Source: a virus
Strand: one strand, 5' to 3'
IMG/VR virus record: IMGVR_UViG_3300017748_000071
DNA: 29,821 nucleotides
Position numbers and translations under genes: made by a program. This document shows positions 1 to 29,821 of this stretch, in pieces; the stretch's first letter is position 1; every line of letters begins with the position of its first letter. Under the pieces are notes generated by a model. The model was not told the DNA's origin and did not search any database. It was given only the letters and a program-made list of their open reading frames with translations.

Positions 1-108
1 AAATCTGCTCTCGGCGAAGAAGCGGTATCTCAGTATGAGGATAGCGTTGCTAGCCAGATAGAATTATCCAAGAATCCAGTTCAAGCGAGTGGTACACCGT
101 GGAATTAG
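1..108 (+). CDS. 3' fragment (duplicate copy) of the gene annotated in full at 29477..29806
   Basis: Lies inside the terminal repeat; same frame and same TAG stop (106..108 = 29804..29806). Confidence 0.7.
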   Translation, partial: KSALGEEAVSQYEDSVASQIELSKNPVQASGTPWN

Positions 109-123
109 TCGAAATCATTGCCC
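1..123. repeat. Left copy of exact 123-bp terminal direct repeat (identical to 29699..29821)
   Basis: Read directly: aaatctgctctcggcgaagaagcgg...gtcgaaatcattgccc is present at both window ends, offset 29698 bp. Confidence 0.95.
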
Positions 124-260: not shown

Positions 261-478
261 CCCAAGAAGAGCGCAATCTGGCCTTAGATGCCCTCGAACG
301 CATCGCAAAACATGAAGAAGTTTGTGGTCGGCGATGGGGTGAGGCATTGACCGAGTTAAAACAACTGCGGTCGGCCACTGACGCTCACGCTGCGAGATGG
401 GAAAAGCTTGCTTGGTTAGTAATCACAACAGCCCTTGCAACGGCTGCAACAGTAATCACAACACATTTTGTGGGGTAA
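257..478 (+). CDS. Hypothetical tail-anchored membrane protein (73 aa)
   Basis: ORF track; soluble helical N-part, then the hydrophobic C-terminus LAWLVITTALATAATVITTHFVG; coupled to neighbours. Confidence 0.6.
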   Translation: MTQEERNLALDALERIAKHEEVCGRRWGEALTELKQLRSATDAHAARWEKLAWLVITTALATAATVITTHFVG

Positions 479-480
479 AT

Positions 481-789
481 ATGTCCGAACAAAACACGGT
501 GAAGATTCCGACCTTTTTGCTACCAATCGGTGCCGCTGCGGTATCGCTGGCCGTCGCATGGGGAGTTTTACAATCTAACGTAGCTCACGCGACAGAAGAC
601 CGCGAACGCATACAAATCATAGCGGAGGAAGCCGCAAAAAAAGCAGCAGCCAACGGTCAAGCGCAAGCAGTGACGGACGCCCGTCTGGACGCTATCGTTG
701 CGAGCCTCGAGAAGCAGGAACAGATCAGCGAGAAAACAAACGAGCAGATCAGTGTTCTGGTTCAAGCTCTTTTGAAGGGACAGAATTAG
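481..789 (+). CDS. Hypothetical type-II membrane protein with coiled-coil ectodomain (102 aa)
   Basis: Internal ATG of ORF 397..789, placed 2 nt after the upstream stop with GTGGGG upstream. N-terminal TM FLLPIGAAAVSLAVAWGVL, then an Ala/Glu/Gln/Lys-rich helical region. Confidence 0.65.
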   Translation: MSEQNTVKIPTFLLPIGAAAVSLAVAWGVLQSNVAHATEDRERIQIIAEEAAKKAAANGQAQAVTDARLDAIVASLEKQEQISEKTNEQISVLVQALLKGQN

Positions 790-842: not shown

Positions 843-1064
843 ATGTTAAAAACGTTACATGGCCAAGCGCGTAGGGACGCTGCTATCAAGTGGCTAACCG
901 ACGCGCAGCAGACTTGCAGTTTTGGCGCTGCGGTGTACGTCCAAAACAGTTTGGATCGGTATTTAGTCGGGGCGGTGAACCAGCGCATTAAAATGCTTAG
1001 CTGGAATTTAAGGGCTAGAGAGGCCGTCCAGACCCAAGTTATTACTAAAAAGCGGGAAATCTAA
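843..1064 (+). CDS. Hypothetical protein (73 aa)
   Basis: ORF track; GGGAG 4 nt upstream of the ATG; stop overlaps the next start (TAATG). Confidence 0.55.
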   Translation: MLKTLHGQARRDAAIKWLTDAQQTCSFGAAVYVQNSLDRYLVGAVNQRIKMLSWNLRAREAVQTQVITKKREI

Positions 1065-1324
1065 TGCCGGAGATGCTTGTTTATGTTTTGCTAATGTATG
1101 TGGGTGGCGTAGAAGAGCCTAACTTCCGAGTACATTTTCGCACTTTAAGCCAATGCGCTAAACACAAAGTGGCGATAGAACATCAGAGCGGTGATGATTT
1201 TCCGTACATCTTTCCTAAAACCAACCGCTTTAGCTTGGTCTGCATGCCAAAGATAATTACATCCAAGCAAGCTGGCACCGAAATCATATTCCACGACTTA
1301 CCTGATGTAGTGGCAGACAAGTAA
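1064..1324 (+). CDS. Hypothetical protein (86 aa)
   Basis: ORF track; TAATG coupling to the upstream ORF. Confidence 0.55.
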   Translation: MPEMLVYVLLMYVGGVEEPNFRVHFRTLSQCAKHKVAIEHQSGDDFPYIFPKTNRFSLVCMPKIITSKQAGTEIIFHDLPDVVADK

Positions 1325-9225: not shown

Positions 9226-9455
9226 TATAAAACCCCCGAACGGATGAAGCGGCGAACCGCGTTGTAGATTGTGCTTTGAGCCAACCCCATCTCACGCGAG
9301 ATAGCAGCCTTTGTATAGCCTTGCTGGTATAGCTCACCAATGCGGTCGATTTGTGCCTCGGTCAGCTTTTTAGGTGCTGGCCTATTGCTAGAACGCCCGT
9401 ACATATCGGGCAGCTTTTTAAGCGCCTGAGTAGCTCGGTAGAATGTGTCGTTCAC
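9225..9455 (-). CDS. Small HTH DNA-binding protein (resolvase/Hin-type or sigma-region-4-like HTH), 76 aa
   Basis: LTEAQIDRIGELYQQGYTKAAISREMGLAQSTIYNAVRRF is a classic tri-helical HTH pattern; ATGA-type coupling to the upstream gene. Confidence 0.7.
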   Translation of the reverse strand: MNDTFYRATQALKKLPDMYGRSSNRPAPKKLTEAQIDRIGELYQQGYTKAAISREMGLAQSTIYNAVRRFIRSGVL

Positions 9456-9820
9456 GATGCCTCCAAAGTCGTTTCTAAATAATCAAAAATAAATTTATCC
9501 AAAGATCCTTGGTAGAAGGGGTCAAATGTATCTCCGAAATCGCCTTTTCGCTTGTAAGCTATGATTTGCCACTTTCTTTCTAAATCCATAGAAAGATCAT
9601 AGCGATATTCGGTATCAGAGTGCGTGCCGTGATGACTTATCACTTCGGATCGCTCGTTTGCCCAAAGAAAGCAACTTAGAAAATTTCGATTGGTTTTTTC
9701 TTGCAGTAACTGCGCTTTGAGAAAGTAATGAGCTGCGCCAGCAGCATACCCATCGTGATGGATATAGAAAGTTGTTGTGCTAAAGCCGCTTTTGATTTGA
9801 TAGGTTGCTCTTGTGGCCAT
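9452..9820 (-). CDS. Hypothetical protein (122 aa), first gene of the minus cassette
   Basis: ORF track; AAGGA upstream; conserved-looking blocks TFYIHHDGYAAGAAHYF and HHGTHSDTEYRYDL; no family recognised. Confidence 0.65.
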   Translation of the reverse strand: MATRATYQIKSGFSTTTFYIHHDGYAAGAAHYFLKAQLLQEKTNRNFLSCFLWANERSEVISHHGTHSDTEYRYDLSMDLERKWQIIAYKRKGDFGDTFDPFYQGSLDKFIFDYLETTLEAS

Positions 9821-9864
9821 GTCGTTTTCCTTGGTTGTTAAGTCTTAATTGTTTCAACGGGTTC

Positions 9865-9898
9865 ATAATTACAAAAAACCAATCAAAAGTAAACCTTT
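9865..9898 (-). promoter_or_regulatory. Third copy of AAAGGTTTACTTT (minus strand, 9898..9886) with a candidate promoter (-35 TTTACT, 17-nt spacer, -10 AATTAT) for the 9820..9040 cassette
   Basis: Reverse complement read by hand; same -35 context as the sites at 3620 and 4225. Confidence 0.45.
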
Positions 9899-9912
9899 CG
9901 TTTAGGATAGCA

Positions 9913-9921
9913 AAAGGGTTA
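9913..9921 (+). promoter_or_regulatory. AAAGGGTTA, an imperfect inverted partner (8 of 9) of the 9890..9898 TAAACCTTT arm, facing the late operon
   Basis: Read directly; separated from its partner by 14 nt; TAAAAT (9920..9925) overlaps it. Confidence 0.3.
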
Positions 9922-9950
9922 AAATACCCGATTTGCTATGTTGAGGTAAC

Positions 9951-10361
9951 ATGAAGACTGTAAAACTAGAACGGCTGGCGTATTTAGAGGAAGGGACATT
10001 CGGTGAACTGACATCCGATTGCGGGTTTCACTGTTACACTGTAGAGCGGCCTTGGTTAGATAACAAACCTTGGGAGTCATGCGTCCCCGAGGCCAGCTAT
10101 CAATGCCAGCCATTTGACGGTAATAGGTTCAAAGGCGTCGTTGAGCTAACTAACGTGCCTGATCGCAGTCATATCCTGATTCACGCGGCTAACTGGCCTA
10201 AAGAACTACACGGCTGTATCGGATTGGGTAACGGATGGGAGATTACAAAAACTGTTCCGATGGTTTACAATTCCAAGGCGACCTGTAGAGAATTCTTTGC
10301 AAAGGTCGGTAAAGAGTTTATTTTGACCATAACGAGCAAGAGCGCGATTTTATGGGAATAG
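9951..10361 (+). CDS. DUF5675-like protein with a YkuD-like His...His-Gly-Cys motif; candidate non-canonical endolysin
   Basis: GTFGEL...CYTVERPW...CVPEASYQC...VELTNVPDRSHILIHAANWPKELHGCIGLG matches my memory of the DUF5675 family. It lies immediately upstream of the holin and overlaps it. Confidence 0.7.
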   Translation: MKTVKLERLAYLEEGTFGELTSDCGFHCYTVERPWLDNKPWESCVPEASYQCQPFDGNRFKGVVELTNVPDRSHILIHAANWPKELHGCIGLGNGWEITKTVPMVYNSKATCREFFAKVGKEFILTITSKSAILWE

Positions 10362-10735
10362 GCATAGTTAAAGATCTAGTCGGCCCTGTAGCGGGCATCC
10401 TAGACAAGTTTGTCGAGGATAAAGACCAGCGGGCGCAGTTAGCGCATGAAATCGCAACGATGGCCGACAATCACGCGCAGGAACTAAGTCTAGCGCAGAT
10501 CGAGCTAGCCAAAGTCGAGGCTGGCGGCAACTGGCTACAACGAAGTTGGCGACCTATGATCGGCCATATCTGTTGGATTGGGTTGGCTTACAACGTAGTA
10601 GTCTCGCCGTTTCTAGGCATTTGGTTGCCTGTTCCTGAGATACAATCGGATCTGCTGTATCCGGTTCTATTGGGGATGCTTGGAATGTCAGGCATTCGCG
10701 GATATGAGAAAGTGAAGGGCAAAGCTGGTGGCTAA
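10352..10735 (+). CDS. Holin, GTA-type 3TM holin family
   Basis: ILDKFVEDKDQRAQLAHE...ELSLAQIELAKVEAGGNWLQRSWRPMIGHICWIGLAYNVVVSPFLG plus a second hydrophobic segment LLYPVLLGMLGMSGI. This pattern matches the GTA_holin_3TM family as I recall it. Confidence 0.7.
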   Translation: MGIGIVKDLVGPVAGILDKFVEDKDQRAQLAHEIATMADNHAQELSLAQIELAKVEAGGNWLQRSWRPMIGHICWIGLAYNVVVSPFLGIWLPVPEIQSDLLYPVLLGMLGMSGIRGYEKVKGKAGG

Positions 10736-11018
10736 GGTTTCCGAAGATTCAGAACTGACGATACCGCTGAAAAACTTGCTTAGTTTGGTCGGAGCAACGG
10801 CTGTAGGTGTTTGGGCATACTTTGGTATCACTGAACGCCTTGGCTTGTTAGAGCGCGAACAAGCTATGATGATGGTCGAGGTTGAAGAAAACGACAACTG
10901 GATTGACAACTTCACGCCCCCGCCAGAAGTGAACGCCAGCGTTCAACGGGTCAGGGAGCTAGAGTTGCAGCTTGTTGAGATAAAGTCGCGGCTTAAATTC
11001 TTGGAGGCAGAAAAGTAA
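10728..11018 (+). CDS. Membrane-anchored coiled-coil protein (i-spanin-like architecture), 96 aa
   Basis: GTG start overlaps the holin stop. TM LLSLVGATAVGVWAYFGI, then the helical C-part VRELELQLVEIKSRLKFLEAEK. No lipobox partner ORF was seen. Confidence 0.5.
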   Translation: MAKVSEDSELTIPLKNLLSLVGATAVGVWAYFGITERLGLLEREQAMMMVEVEENDNWIDNFTPPPEVNASVQRVRELELQLVEIKSRLKFLEAEK

Positions 11019-11240
11019 ATGCGTGGTGTATTACTGTTTAATCAAGATGGCACGATATACGCGGGTCAGGTTCATACAATGCCGAATGGCGAAGTTCATA
11101 CAGGAACCGCCCATACAGCAGCAAGCAAGCGGGTCTTTTACTATTCAGACCTGCCCCCGCCTAGTCGGATCAGAGCGTTAGAAGCTATGGTGGAGCGTCA
11201 CGACAACCCTAGTAGAACAAACGGAAGCCTAAACAACTGA
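11019..11240 (+). CDS. Hypothetical protein (73 aa)
   Basis: ORF track; ATG directly after the upstream TAA. Confidence 0.5.
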   Translation: MRGVLLFNQDGTIYAGQVHTMPNGEVHTGTAHTAASKRVFYYSDLPPPSRIRALEAMVERHDNPSRTNGSLNN

Positions 11241-11593
11241 TGGCAAGACCATTGATCGAGATAGACTGGGATCAAGTTGATACTATGTGTGAGATACACT
11301 GCACTGGCGAAGAACAGGCAGCGGTTCTCGGCGTTGACTATGACACGCTCAACACGGCGTGTAAGCGCGAGCATGGCGTCGGTTTTTCGGACTATTTCAA
11401 ACAAAAGAGCGCAGCGGGCAAAATGAGCCTCAGACGTAGGCAATACACCAAGGCAATGGACGGGGACAATACCCAGCTTATATGGCTAGGAAAGAACTGG
11501 TTAGGCCAAATGGATCAGCCAGAAGCCGCACCGATAGACTTGCAGCCCATAGTTATCGAGCGAGCCGATGAAGCTAACCAAGCCTCAGGATGA
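11240..11593 (+). CDS. terS: Terminase small subunit (HTH type)
   Basis: Position immediately upstream of TerL. Pattern ...EEQAAVLGVDYDTL...GKMSLRRRQYTKAMDGDNTQLIWLGKNWLGQ is typical of small terminases. Confidence 0.75.
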   Translation: MARPLIEIDWDQVDTMCEIHCTGEEQAAVLGVDYDTLNTACKREHGVGFSDYFKQKSAAGKMSLRRRQYTKAMDGDNTQLIWLGKNWLGQMDQPEAAPIDLQPIVIERADEANQASG

Positions 11594-12782
11594 TATATTC
11601 TTTAACGACTGCCGTTTTCGGGTAGTTGTTGCGGGTAGACGATTCGGCAAGACGTTCATCTGCGTTTATGAGCTACTGCGTGTTGCTCTAAGCGATAAAG
11701 GCAAGAATTGCTGGTATGTTGCCCCGACCTACAAAGCAGCCAAAGAGATCGCTTGGACTATGCTTCTAGATGCTATACCTGATGGGTACATAGAGCGCAA
11801 AAACGAAACGTCACTCACGGTAACACTACGCAACGGGTCAACCGTTTCACTAAAAGGCGCTGAGAACCCCGACAGTCTGCGGGGTAGGGCGTTAGATTTT
11901 GTTGTGATGGATGAGTTCGCCGATATGCGACCAGAAGCGTGGTACGAGGTACTACGGCCATCGCTATCAGACCGCAAGGGGTCAGCGTTATTCATTGGAA
12001 CACCGAAAGGGCGCAATCACTTCTATGACCTATGGACTAGGGGCGTTGACGGTTATGAGTCATGGAAAGCGTTTCAATACACGACAATCCAAGGCGGCAA
12101 CGTAGAGTCTCAAGAGATCGAGGCGGCGAGACACGACCTAGATGAGCGCACGTTTCAGCAAGAGTATGAGGCGAGGTTTGTTAACTACAGCGGGATCATT
12201 TACTACGGCTTTAACCGTGAGCAGTCAGTTAAGACCTACAAAGGCCCAATCGAAGACTTACATATTGGGATGGACTTCAACGTCGATCCGATGTCGGCTG
12301 TTGTATGCGTTAGGCATGGCGGGGTAGTACACGCGATTGATGAGGTCGTGATGTATGGCTCGAACACTGATGAGATGGTCGATGAGATCAGGCAGCGTTA
12401 CAATGACAAGCCAATCACTATCTACCCAGACCCAGCATCGGCGCAGCGTAAGACATCCGCAGGGAGTCGAACGGATCTGAACATACTGCAAAACGCGGGC
12501 TTCAAGGTTAAAGTTAGGACAAGACACCCGGCGATTCGTGATAGAATCAACGCGGTGAATAGCAGACTGCTATCGAGCGAACAAGAGCGGCGGCTATTTG
12601 TTAGCCCCAACTGTAAAAACGTAGTCAACAGCCTAGAGCGTCAAACGTATAAAGAAGGCACCAGCCAGCCGAATAAGGATGACGGGTTCGACCACATGAA
12701 CGATGCACTAGGTTATTTGATCGAGTATATGTTCCCGATTCGTAAGGAACACGATGTACCGCAGCCGGTGAGGTGGAGTTAA
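11568..12782 (+). CDS. terL: Terminase large subunit
   Basis: Walker A-like VAGRRFGKTF, Walker B-like FVVMDEF, C-terminal nuclease-like region (MDFNVDP...DHMNDALGY); followed by the portal gene. Confidence 0.9.
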   Translation: MKLTKPQDDIFFNDCRFRVVVAGRRFGKTFICVYELLRVALSDKGKNCWYVAPTYKAAKEIAWTMLLDAIPDGYIERKNETSLTVTLRNGSTVSLKGAENPDSLRGRALDFVVMDEFADMRPEAWYEVLRPSLSDRKGSALFIGTPKGRNHFYDLWTRGVDGYESWKAFQYTTIQGGNVESQEIEAARHDLDERTFQQEYEARFVNYSGIIYYGFNREQSVKTYKGPIEDLHIGMDFNVDPMSAVVCVRHGGVVHAIDEVVMYGSNTDEMVDEIRQRYNDKPITIYPDPASAQRKTSAGSRTDLNILQNAGFKVKVRTRHPAIRDRINAVNSRLLSSEQERRLFVSPNCKNVVNSLERQTYKEGTSQPNKDDGFDHMNDALGYLIEYMFPIRKEHDVPQPVRWS

Positions 12783-16047: not shown

Positions 16048-16881
16048 ATGGCTGCTACTACTAGCACAACCCTAGACGATCTATTTGTCAACATTATCGC
16101 TCAAGCCCGATTCACTGCTGAAGAGCAGTCTTTGATGATGGGCCTTGTAACTCGCTACGACATCGGCGCTGACGCTGGTAAGACAATCCAAGTACCTAAG
16201 TATCCTGCGATTGCTGCCGCTGATTTGACCGAAGGCACTGATATGTCTTCTACAACTGTAAGCACTAGCTCAGTAACCGTTACGGTTGGTGAAGTTGGCG
16301 CTCAGGTTGTATTGACTGACGTTGCTGCAATGGGCGCAGGTAATCCTGCTGAAGAATTGGGTACGGTTCTCGGTAACGCAATCGCCACAAAGATGGATGT
16401 GGACTTGATTGCATTGTTCGACGGCTTTAGTTCTGGTTTAGGCGGTGCTGGAACTGAGATCACTGTAGCTGACCTGTTCAAAGCTGCTGCAACTCTACGC
16501 GCTGCGAAGGTAACTGGCCCAATGGCGGCTGTTGTTCATCCTTTCCAAGCGTATCAGTTGAAGGCTAACCTCACTAATACATTCGCTAATCCGAATGGCG
16601 GTGACGCGCAGAATACTGCTATGGTAAATGCTTATGTCGGCACAATTGCTGGCATCGATGTTTACGAGTCTGCAAACATCACTGTTGATGGTAGCGATGA
16701 CGCTAAAGGCGCTGTATTTGCACCTGAAGCACTCGCTATCGCTATGAAGCGCGACTTCCAAATTGAGCCACAGCGTGACGCATCACTGCGTGCGTTTGAG
16801 CTTAACGCTACTGCCGTTTACGGTGTTGGCGAGTTGGATGACAGCTTCGGTGTTGAGATGCTTTTCGACTCAGCACTCTAA
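16048..16881 (+). CDS. Major capsid protein
   Basis: Position after the scaffold; GGAG RBS; Ala/Thr/Gly/Val-rich 277-aa protein; followed by a strong intrinsic terminator. Confidence 0.85.
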   Translation: MAATTSTTLDDLFVNIIAQARFTAEEQSLMMGLVTRYDIGADAGKTIQVPKYPAIAAADLTEGTDMSSTTVSTSSVTVTVGEVGAQVVLTDVAAMGAGNPAEELGTVLGNAIATKMDVDLIALFDGFSSGLGGAGTEITVADLFKAAATLRAAKVTGPMAAVVHPFQAYQLKANLTNTFANPNGGDAQNTAMVNAYVGTIAGIDVYESANITVDGSDDAKGAVFAPEALAIAMKRDFQIEPQRDASLRAFELNATAVYGVGELDDSFGVEMLFDSAL

Positions 16882-16896
16882 GGCGCACCTTGGGAC

Positions 16897-16923
16897 AGCC
16901 CCGCTTCGGCGGGGTTCGTTTCA
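16897..16923 (+). terminator. Rho-independent terminator or attenuator after the major capsid gene
   Basis: AGCCCCGC-TTCG-GCGGGGTT (8-bp stem with one G-U, UUCG tetraloop) followed by CGTTTC. Confidence 0.7.
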
Positions 16924-16936
16924 TAGAGGGGACAAT

Positions 16937-17224
16937 ATGGCGATTAGTTATCGAGGCGAGCGATTCGAGGGCTACAACAAGCCCAAGCGCACACCTAAGC
17001 ACCCAGACAAAAGTCACGCAGTCCTAGCGAAAGAAGGCGACAAGGTTCGTTTGATTCGTTTCGGACAACAAGGTGCAGATAACAAGCCACCCCGTAAAGG
17101 CGAAAGCGAAGCCGATAAGGCGAAGCGTAGAGCGTTCAAAGCTAGATTTGCAGATCAGATCGAGAAGGGACGCAAAGACAAAACAGCATCAGCCGCATAT
17201 TGGGCTGACAAGGTGAAGTGGTAA
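16937..17224 (+). CDS. Basic Lys/Arg-rich hypothetical protein (95 aa)
   Basis: Internal ATG of ORF 16763..17224 with AGAGGGGA upstream. The longer track ORF would overlap the capsid gene and span the terminator. Confidence 0.6.
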   Translation: MAISYRGERFEGYNKPKRTPKHPDKSHAVLAKEGDKVRLIRFGQQGADNKPPRKGESEADKAKRRAFKARFADQIEKGRKDKTASAAYWADKVKW

Positions 17225-29476: not shown

Positions 29477-29806
29477 ATGGCAGCAACATGGACAGTATCC
29501 ACAATGGAACGAACCCTAACCGACGGCGACCTAAGCGACGTTGTAACTGTGCTCCACTGGCAATGTATCGACAGTGAGACAGTGGATGACGTAACGCACT
29601 CAGGCCGATGCTACGGCACTGTGGGGCTAGAAGCACCAGATGCGGACAGCTTTACTGCTTACGCAGACATTTCTCACGATGATGCTGTAGAATGGGCGAA
29701 ATCTGCTCTCGGCGAAGAAGCGGTATCTCAGTATGAGGATAGCGTTGCTAGCCAGATAGAATTATCCAAGAATCCAGTTCAAGCGAGTGGTACACCGTGG
29801 AATTAG
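29477..29806 (+). CDS. Hypothetical acidic protein (109 aa) spanning the repeat/junction
   Basis: ORF track; ATG 1 nt after the tail fibre stop; its last 108 nt lie in the terminal repeat. Confidence 0.6.
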   Translation: MAATWTVSTMERTLTDGDLSDVVTVLHWQCIDSETVDDVTHSGRCYGTVGLEAPDADSFTAYADISHDDAVEWAKSALGEEAVSQYEDSVASQIELSKNPVQASGTPWN

Positions 29807-29821
29807 TCGAAATCATTGCCC
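29699..29821. repeat. Right copy of exact 123-bp terminal direct repeat (identical to 1..123)
   Basis: Same string as 1..123; the window ends inside otherwise continuous sequence. Confidence 0.95.

Follow-up and report, generated by a model that had tools for sequence, protein, structure and literature searches.

Our analyses support the occurrence of a three-gene lysis cassette in a complete marine phage genome, in which a protein of 136 residues belonging to the family DUF5675 is best explained as the endolysin, an assignment that we regard as probable. The cassette occupies positions 9951-11018 of the IMG/VR record IMGVR_UViG_3300017748_000071, a stretch of 29,821 nucleotides that was analysed at its full length (hereafter the window), and codes for the DUF5675 protein, a holin of the gene transfer agent (GTA) type and a protein of 96 residues (p96) with a transmembrane segment and a coiled coil. 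The cassette had been proposed in an earlier reading of the sequence (hereafter the original prediction), and the open reading frame (ORF) listing places all three genes on the plus strand with the limits then given. The endolysin assignment rests mainly on module swapping beside the holin, on positional equivalences and on a conserved Arg/His/Gly-Cys constellation.

The window begins and ends with the same 123 bases, and on account of this exact direct terminal repeat it constitutes a complete phage genome, with approximately 29.7 kb of unique sequence, of the marine siphovirus type; a related IMG/VR contig measures 29,642 bp. With the genome complete, the absence of other lysins becomes testable. 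All ORFs of at least 80 residues, except those nested inside longer genes, were searched against Pfam, and the ORFs without a Pfam match were searched against PHROGs together with several tail proteins. No lysozyme, amidase, transglycosylase, M15, M23, CHAP or NlpC domain was found in the complete genome by these searches, which instead identified helicase, Rad52, NinG, phosphoesterase, terminase, portal, scaffold, tail tube, tape measure, distal tail, J-like tip protein and Mtd_N/S74 fibre matches. The absence of any conventional lysin, claimed in the original prediction, therefore holds within the scope of these searches, and the choice of the DUF5675 protein as the best endolysin candidate is borne out, its gene being the sole peptidoglycan-enzyme-like gene in the complete genome.

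The family assignment of this protein, made from the sequence alone in the original prediction, was confirmed by a match to the Pfam profile of DUF5675 (PF18925; E=3.6e-27; score 94.9 bits, cut-off 26.7), the alignment spanning profile positions 2-112 of 114, and by a match to phrog_1501, of function unknown, at 2.4e-28. All 21 aligned homologs likewise belong to the Pfam family, which is matched at E<=1e-3 by 14,077 clusters at 50% identity and is found in 145 cultured-phage records, the hosts being Gram-negative in every case. Across 42 diverse homologs the residues E32, P34, W35, S43, C44, P46, Y50, R72, H78, N81, G88, C89 and S108 are invariant, giving the pattern R-x5-H-x10-C with an invariant Gly directly before the Cys, and position 87 varies across the family. 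The segment SHILIHAANWPKELHGCIGLG (residues 73-93, positions 10167-10229), to which attention had been drawn for its resemblance to a YkuD-type active site, does contain three of these invariant residues, H78, G88 and C89. No hydrophobic segment, signal peptide or signal-anchor-release segment was detected in the protein; lacking a hydrophobic segment, it is predicted to be cytoplasmic and would need a holin.

Such a holin is encoded by the next gene, the product of which matches GTA_holin_3TM (PF11351; E=1.1e-14; score 55.5 bits, cut-off 24.8) and phrog_3427, annotated as 'holin', at 3e-28, as anticipated for a GTA-type protein. Its hydrophobic segments lie at about residues 1-17 (weak), 66-90 and 97-115. 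The profile score, these membrane segments and the presence of M15_3 and GH24 lysin genes beside its homologs all place it in the GTA_holin_3TM/TeaA family, for which experimental validation is available: TeaA of phage ICP1 lyses cells and causes the proton motive force to collapse, and its antiholin ArrA is encoded adjacent to it (PMC7182436).

More than 2000 homologs of the window holin were found, and for homologs with 52-64% identity the neighbouring genes were examined on long contigs. A Peptidase_M15_3 gene lies 54 bp downstream of the holin homolog in two of these loci (L111 and L112, the L numbers denoting homologous loci on other phage contigs or records) and one gene away from it in two others (L113 and L114), and a GH24 Phage_lysozyme gene overlaps the end of the holin homolog in L115 and L116. 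Judged by gene order, the DUF5675 gene beside this conserved holin is a case of ordinary endolysin module swapping.

Equivalent positions were found for DUF5675 genes in other phages. In the Mu-like vibriophages martha 12B12 and ZX4290 the gene is the next one after the late activator, which corresponds to the position of lys in Mu, and the sequence retrieved (about 90% and 84% of the respective genomes) contains no gene annotated as a lysin. The DUF5675 gene of Paraglaciecola virus JLT2 is found where the tail operon ends, between the genes for a protein with two transmembrane segments and a protein with a holin-like N-terminus. Two unrelated Microviridae also encode a DUF5675 protein (L001, MH992181, 3009-3419; L118, PP511321, 3649-4041), in genomes of 4.9 and 6.4 kb with 6-7 genes in all and no holin or other lysin, and in the microvirus Dulem virus the gene is followed by one for a 71-aa protein with a canonical lipobox (LTSC); enzymatic lysis is suggested for some microviruses. 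Many IMG/VR contigs of 4-6 kb with DUF5675 were also considered as microviruses and were rejected, since none matched a microvirus capsid. In the Ralstonia jumbo phages RP31 (AP017925) and RP12 (NC_041911) and in the entry A0A1L7N1E2 of BFVD, a database of predicted viral structures, the domain is found inside proteins of 868-1251 residues, and one jumbo-phage protein of about 1250 residues is annotated as 'tail fiber protein'. DUF5675 may thus also serve as a virion-associated wall-degrading domain in jumbo phages, a kind of reuse in virion proteins that is familiar from known lysin domains.

Papers on vibriophages list DUF5675 as a domain of unknown function, and the statement of the original prediction that the family has no established function holds true experimentally. 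The idea of a lysin is nevertheless no longer new, as both a recent preprint and database annotations anticipate it. The DUF5675 protein LysPd160, from prophages of the oral microbiome, was grouped by structure with MEROPS family C82 and a 'C82-like' family was proposed (bioRxiv 10.64898/2026.04.11.717860), and homologs appear in GenBank under the names 'transpeptidase catalytic domain protein' (crAss-like cr50_1) and 'transpeptidase' (JLT2). YkuD, in turn, is a rare catalytic class among phage lysins, with 10 entries in PhaLP.

The relationship of DUF5675 to YkuD-type L,D-transpeptidases (Ldts) was examined through structure prediction and profile comparison. The AlphaFold2 (AF2) model of the window protein (pLDDT 93, pTM 0.88) is mostly beta with one helix, and the predicted fold places the His at the end of a strand and the Gly-Cys at the start of one. 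Foldseek returned no match to this model in the PDB at E<=1e-3, and the sole PDB matches with a non-trivial probability were Ldts, namely M. abscessus Ldt2 (probability 0.69, TM-score 0.51) and LdtMt2 (probability 0.66, TM-score 0.48), both with E>0.1. In BFVD the model had strong matches to DUF5675 proteins, including the domains inside the large proteins mentioned above, as well as to a crAss-like phage protein named 'L,D-carboxypeptidase/transpeptidase' (E=1e-6, TM-score 0.75) and to a Nodularia phage 'Endolysin' (probability 0.97, TM-score 0.60). A Pfam scan at permissive thresholds, covering all 21 members of the DUF5675 alignment A1, matched Tlde1_dom (PF10908) to four of them, the best at E=0.0023 and 18.8 bits against a cut-off of 30.1, and YkuD (PF03734) to one (E=0.053); the window protein itself matched neither profile in Pfam, and neither family can be assigned to DUF5675 by profile score. 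The Tlde1_dom alignments extend from the ERPW motif to two residues beyond the Gly-Cys, that is, over the catalytic core: in member P0007, for instance, residues 41-105 align to profile positions 17-95 and the alignment ends two residues after the Cys. When hhalign was used to compare the family with four Escherichia coli Ldts, which form only a shallow profile, H78 and C89 fell in register with the catalytic residues of the Ldts (P=0.055, probability 1%, not significant).

At the level of motifs, the canonical YkuD signature HXX14-17[S/T]HGCh is absent: LHGCIG resembles SHGC, but the His-Cys spacing is 11 as against 17-20. A closer counterpart is offered by the T6SS toxin Tlde1a/Tae5, in which the His-Cys distance is shorter than in YkuD. 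Published work on this enzyme found H121 and C131 to be essential, G130 to be conserved and R115 to form a salt bridge with the D-amino-acid carboxylate, and mutation of R115, H121, G130 or C131 abolishes toxicity. R72, H78, G88 and C89 of the window protein follow the order of these four residues, with an Arg-His spacing of 6 in both proteins and a His-Cys spacing of 11 versus 10, a correspondence that holds at motif level. A short His-Cys spacing is also present in the YkuD-fold amidase DpaA of E. coli (LMIHGDCVSIGC). Taken together, DUF5675 is probably a member of the L,D-transpeptidase superfamily, with the Tlde1/DUF2778 branch as its closest part. Of the YkuD-type active site put forward in the original prediction, the His and the Gly-Cys stand as invariant residues, while the attribution shifts towards Tlde1/DUF2778, given the absent canonical motif and a fold match of sub-significant score (TM-score of about 0.5, E>0.1) in the comparison with YkuD folds that had been suggested as a check.

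Several points weigh against the endolysin assignment. No published activity was found for any DUF5675 protein, the text of the preprint on LysPd160 included. A replicate AF2 model, that of member P0007 (pLDDT 83), recovered no Ldt match in the PDB, for which reason the PDB fold match was dropped as an established result; the predicted fold link between DUF5675 and solved Ldt structures is suggestive but fragile. Sequence and profile searches of PDB sequences with the DUF5675 alignments A1 and A3 and with P0007 returned chance matches only, with no Tlde1a or Ldt chain. The best Tlde1 score remains below the Pfam cut-off, and the hhalign comparison with the Ldts does not reach significance. A TeaA-type holin alone lysed Vibrio cholerae in the laboratory (PMC7182436), so that a lysin is not strictly required for lysis. 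Finally, in a PHROG census of the two genes on either side of DUF5675 in 37 other clusters, the phrog_3427 holin was adjacent in just four; holin adjacency is therefore not general for DUF5675. A competing lysin is no frequent neighbour either, as the 25 most frequent neighbour families include no endolysin family. The most frequent neighbours were terminase (16), a family of unknown function (15) and HNH (14). The loci sampled derive from a tighter alignment, biased to ERPWLDN-type members, and the PHROG census was used instead of one based on strict hydrophobicity, which missed the window's own holin.

The position of terminase and HNH genes, rather than holins, beside DUF5675 in most of the sampled clusters, together with superfamily links that are all sub-threshold and an annotation as 'hypothetical' in 140+ phage genomes, might be explained if the protein had no part in wall cleavage, acting for example as a late-gene regulator or as a virion or assembly factor, with its adjacency to the holin being coincidental. 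We consider this very improbable. The invariant Arg/His/Gly-Cys constellation matches the active site of a validated peptidase, the genomic contexts recur in five unrelated phage types, and in the window the gene shares 10 nt with the start of the holin gene, in a complete genome that offers no alternative lysin.

A different objection concerns the bond that is cleaved. The characterised relatives Tlde1 and Csd6 are L,D-carboxypeptidases, which trim stems and not cross-links, and stem trimming alone would not dissolve the sacculus quickly. DUF5675 could accordingly act on the envelope without being a bulk muralytic enzyme, either by cutting the link between meso-DAP and an outer-membrane lipoprotein or other outer-membrane proteins, as the amidase DpaA/LdtF does, or by trimming stems as an L,D-carboxypeptidase, and leave lysis to the holin; in both cases the envelope would be weakened and the lack of a spanin made good in part. 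In line with such a role, the genome encodes neither an o-spanin nor any other lipoprotein, the holin is of a type that can lyse cells by itself, and the characterised relatives with short spacing are carboxypeptidases or amidases, not endopeptidases. DpaA shares the short His-Cys spacing, and hhalign aligns its PEGxY and IH motifs with DUF5675, although this match is not significant. True endolysins (M15 and GH24) nonetheless fill the position beside the same holin and p96 in related cassettes, and the microviruses with DUF5675 carry neither a holin nor another lysin, so that we judge a purely envelope-directed role unlikely.

Under the endolysin reading, the DUF5675 protein would be a soluble cytoplasmic cysteine peptidase, a distant relative of the L,D-transpeptidases and closest to the Tlde1/DUF2778 L,D-carboxypeptidase toxins, in which C89 may act as the nucleophile, H78 as the general base and R72 in binding the D-amino-acid carboxylate. 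The 10-nt overlap between the DUF5675 and holin genes suggests that their translation may be coupled. The holin would accumulate in the inner membrane and trigger, the lysin would then reach the periplasm and presumably cut L,D peptide bonds at meso-DAP in peptidoglycan stems or cross-links, and p96, as a single-pass membrane protein with a coiled coil, might act with the holin or at envelope disruption. Extended to the family, this reading would make of DUF5675 a new endolysin catalytic class, that is, a minimal (~130 aa) cysteine L,D-endopeptidase serving as the sole muralytic enzyme in thousands of phage lineages, among them many vibriophages, Mu-like phages and some Microviridae, and present here in a spanin-less cassette in which the outer-membrane step would fall to non-lipoprotein partners (p96 and small Cys proteins). 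We advance this joint proposal tentatively, as one that falls just short of probable.

The third gene of the cassette had been described as having i-spanin topology without an o-spanin partner. The topology stands: a single hydrophobic segment of p96 (approximately residues 14-34) precedes a charged helical part with a PPP break, and the protein agrees with an i-spanin in its N-terminal transmembrane segment and coiled coil, at the level of topology only. Spanin identity is not established, as p96 has no match to a spanin family in PHROGs, its only match there being the unannotated phrog_20984. The absence of a lipoprotein partner was also corroborated. Embedded, overlapping and separate ORFs with a lipobox were sought in every frame, and none was found in 10300-11600 or genome-wide, apart from a spurious antisense ORF inside a tail gene; no lipoprotein gene adjoins the p96 relatives examined. 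In a locus from another phage (L003, 10417-11207), the DUF5675 gene is followed by two lipoprotein genes (with the motifs LVSTGC and LASLGC) and a gene for a protein with two transmembrane segments; some DUF5675 cassettes therefore carry lipoprotein partners, which have no counterpart in the window.

The p96 protein is itself widely conserved, with 265 homologs at about 60% identity and an unusually well conserved transmembrane segment. Its homologs lie next to an M15 endolysin gene in L098 and L099 (phrog_465, E=7e-53) and about 700 bp upstream of a phrog_465 M15 endolysin in L100 and L101, and the order in L111 is p96 relative, holin, M15_3. The holin-like proteins beside p96 in L098 and L100 were considered as members of the window holin family and rejected, as they correspond to phrog_2524. 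Among cultured phages, relatives of p96 are almost confined to Pelagibacter phages (13 of 14 records), including HTVC010P, where the gene is located three genes downstream of the one annotated as endolysin; in HTVC109P, a T7-like pelagiphage, the homolog stands just before the large terminase, in the slot of the i-spanin gp18.5.

From these data, p96 is a conserved lysis-cassette protein that could be i-spanin-like or, equally, an antiholin or holin partner. The latter role, as an antiholin or holin-associated timing factor comparable to ArrA beside TeaA in ICP1, is a substantial possibility, albeit one that we hold as somewhat doubtful. The p96 gene lies directly downstream of a TeaA-type holin gene and overlaps it, as the transmembrane antiholin of ICP1 adjoins TeaA (PMC7182436); the strong conservation of the transmembrane segment (about 60% identity among hundreds of phages) suggests that it has a specific partner within the membrane, and an o-spanin is encoded nowhere in the genome. 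The N-terminal transmembrane segment and the bipartite helical domain with its PPP break are, on the other hand, the architecture of an i-spanin, the HTVC109P homolog stands in an i-spanin slot, and small Cys proteins with hydrophobic N-termini, which often adjoin p96 relatives, could be unconventional partners.

Candidates for such partners are found at the left end of the genome, in a block of small membrane and coiled-coil genes overlooked in the original prediction (99-260, 257-478, 478-789, 1064-1324 and 1352-1594, all on the plus strand). Across the terminal repeat this block follows DUF7936, and several of its genes have homologs (E=9e-12, 2e-9 and 2e-5) in related marine phages, where these are placed between DUF7936 and the holin; in the window, therefore, some 8 kb of early genes lie between the block and the holin and lysin genes. 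The homolog of the gene at 478-789, a 101-aa gene in L109 and L110, lies two genes upstream of the holin. A relationship of the product of 478-789 to p96 was considered and rejected (hhalign probability 0.2%). The product of 1064-1324 is of the same type as gp46 and gp49 of HTVC109P, small proteins that accompany relatives of p96 and of the holin, and it is, speculatively, a candidate for a non-lipoprotein envelope partner. The block as a whole provides possible candidates, in the form of unconventional partners, for the envelope-disruption step.

The three genes of the lysis cassette head a tightly packed string of late and packaging genes on the same strand (Table 1). The stop of the DUF5675 gene and the start of the holin gene share 10 nt (ATGGGAATAG), 8 nt are common to the holin and p96 genes, and the string continues without gaps past p96 through a 73-aa ORF (p73), a small-terminase-like gene and the large terminase. 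A GAGG Shine-Dalgarno sequence is located 6 nt upstream of the DUF5675 ATG. No sigma-70 promoter was detected in a scan upstream of 9951, and a late promoter is presumed to lie in 9821-9950. The p73 protein has no family match in Pfam or PHROGs, and its relatives occur in 37 of 95 DUF5675 loci and in L095 (4450-4617).

Table 1. Features of the lysis cassette and of associated regions of the window
Feature	Positions	Strand	Remarks
DUF5675 protein, 136 aa, proposed cytoplasmic endolysin	9951..10361	+	Pfam PF18925
Proposed active-site stretch R72, H78, N81, G88, C89	10164..10217	+	codons 10164-10166, 10182-10184, 10215-10217
GTA_holin_3TM / TeaA-type holin, 127 aa	10352..10735	+	Pfam PF11351, phrog_3427
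p96, 96 aa, GTG start, transmembrane segment and coiled coil	10728..11018	+	conserved lysis-cassette accessory, i-spanin-like or antiholin
p73, 73 aa, small soluble protein, motif DGTxYxGxxHxMxxGxxHTG	11019..11240	+	between cassette and terminase genes
Small terminase subunit	11240-11593	+	phrog_606 TerS 4.5e-4
Large terminase subunit	11568-12782	+	Terminase_6N/6C
Divergent intergenic region	9821..9950		between leftward gene 9452-9820 and DUF5675 gene
Second protein with transmembrane segment and coiled coil, ~103 aa from internal start	478..789	+	homolog of L109/L110 101-aa gene, E=2e-9
86-aa protein, hydrophobic N-terminus (containing YVGGVEEP), two Cys, without lipobox	1064..1324	+	weak similarity to L115 71-aa protein, E=0.013
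Terminal direct repeat	1..123 and 29699..29821		exact match of 123 bases

Regarding the genome at large, the GC content of the window is 46-51% and its large terminase resembles pelagiphage genes, with no obvious host. The presumed major capsid gene (16048-16881) is without a Pfam match, and the next ORF (16763-17224) overlaps it by about 119 nt, which reflects either a miscalled start of the second ORF or an unusual overlap.

If the endolysin reading is correct, a large unannotated phage family, with its thousands of clusters and its cultured-phage records, would gain a function, and many marine, Vibrio and Mu-like phages, as well as some microviruses, would have their missing endolysin accounted for. 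It would also provide a very small single-domain enzyme active on the Gram-negative wall for the enzybiotic toolbox, and phage lysins and the Tlde1 toxins of the T6SS would represent two uses of one active-site design. The window constitutes a clean test case, being a complete genome in which a single holin accompanies a single lysin candidate and spanin lipoproteins are absent, and cultivable relatives are available in the Vibrio phages martha 12B12 and ZX4290 and in Paraglaciecola virus JLT2.

Compared with canonical lysis regions, such as SRRzRz1 of lambda, the lys region of Mu and TeaA-ArrA of ICP1, the window cassette shares compact overlapping genes, a lysin free of export signals, a protein with a transmembrane segment and a coiled coil, a validated holin family, its place at the head of the late and packaging genes, and interchangeable lysin modules. 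It differs in its order of lysin, holin and accessory gene, in drawing its lysin from an uncharacterised family, in lacking an o-spanin or u-spanin, and in the small membrane-protein genes, normally located before the holin, that lie about 8 kb away at the left end. In relation to YkuD enzymes (PF03734, MEROPS C82), comprising LdtMt2, M. abscessus Ldt2, E. coli LdtA-E and the hydrolases Csd6 and DpaA, DUF5675 shares the predicted all-beta core with one helix, and differs in its shorter His-Cys distance (10 residues between) and in having no LysM or peptidoglycan-binding domain. Tlde1a/Tae5 (DUF2778, PF10908; PDB 7UMA), a Salmonella T6SS toxin with L,D-carboxypeptidase and transpeptidase-exchange activity, is likewise a small single-domain protein, as the cysteine enzyme predicted for DUF5675 would be, with the same Arg-His-Gly-Cys order, a His-Cys spacing shorter than that of YkuD and a proposed role in damaging the Gram-negative wall. 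DUF5675 has in addition the invariants E32, W35, S43-C44, Y50 and S108, and the protein is predicted to be cytoplasmic and holin-dependent within a phage cassette, instead of being delivered by a T6SS, and has no immunity gene. Finally, LysPd160 belongs to the same Pfam family and has been proposed as the same C82/YkuD-related type of peptidase; that proposal derives from structure clustering alone and offers no argument from genomic context, whereas the window presents a natural cassette in a complete genome.

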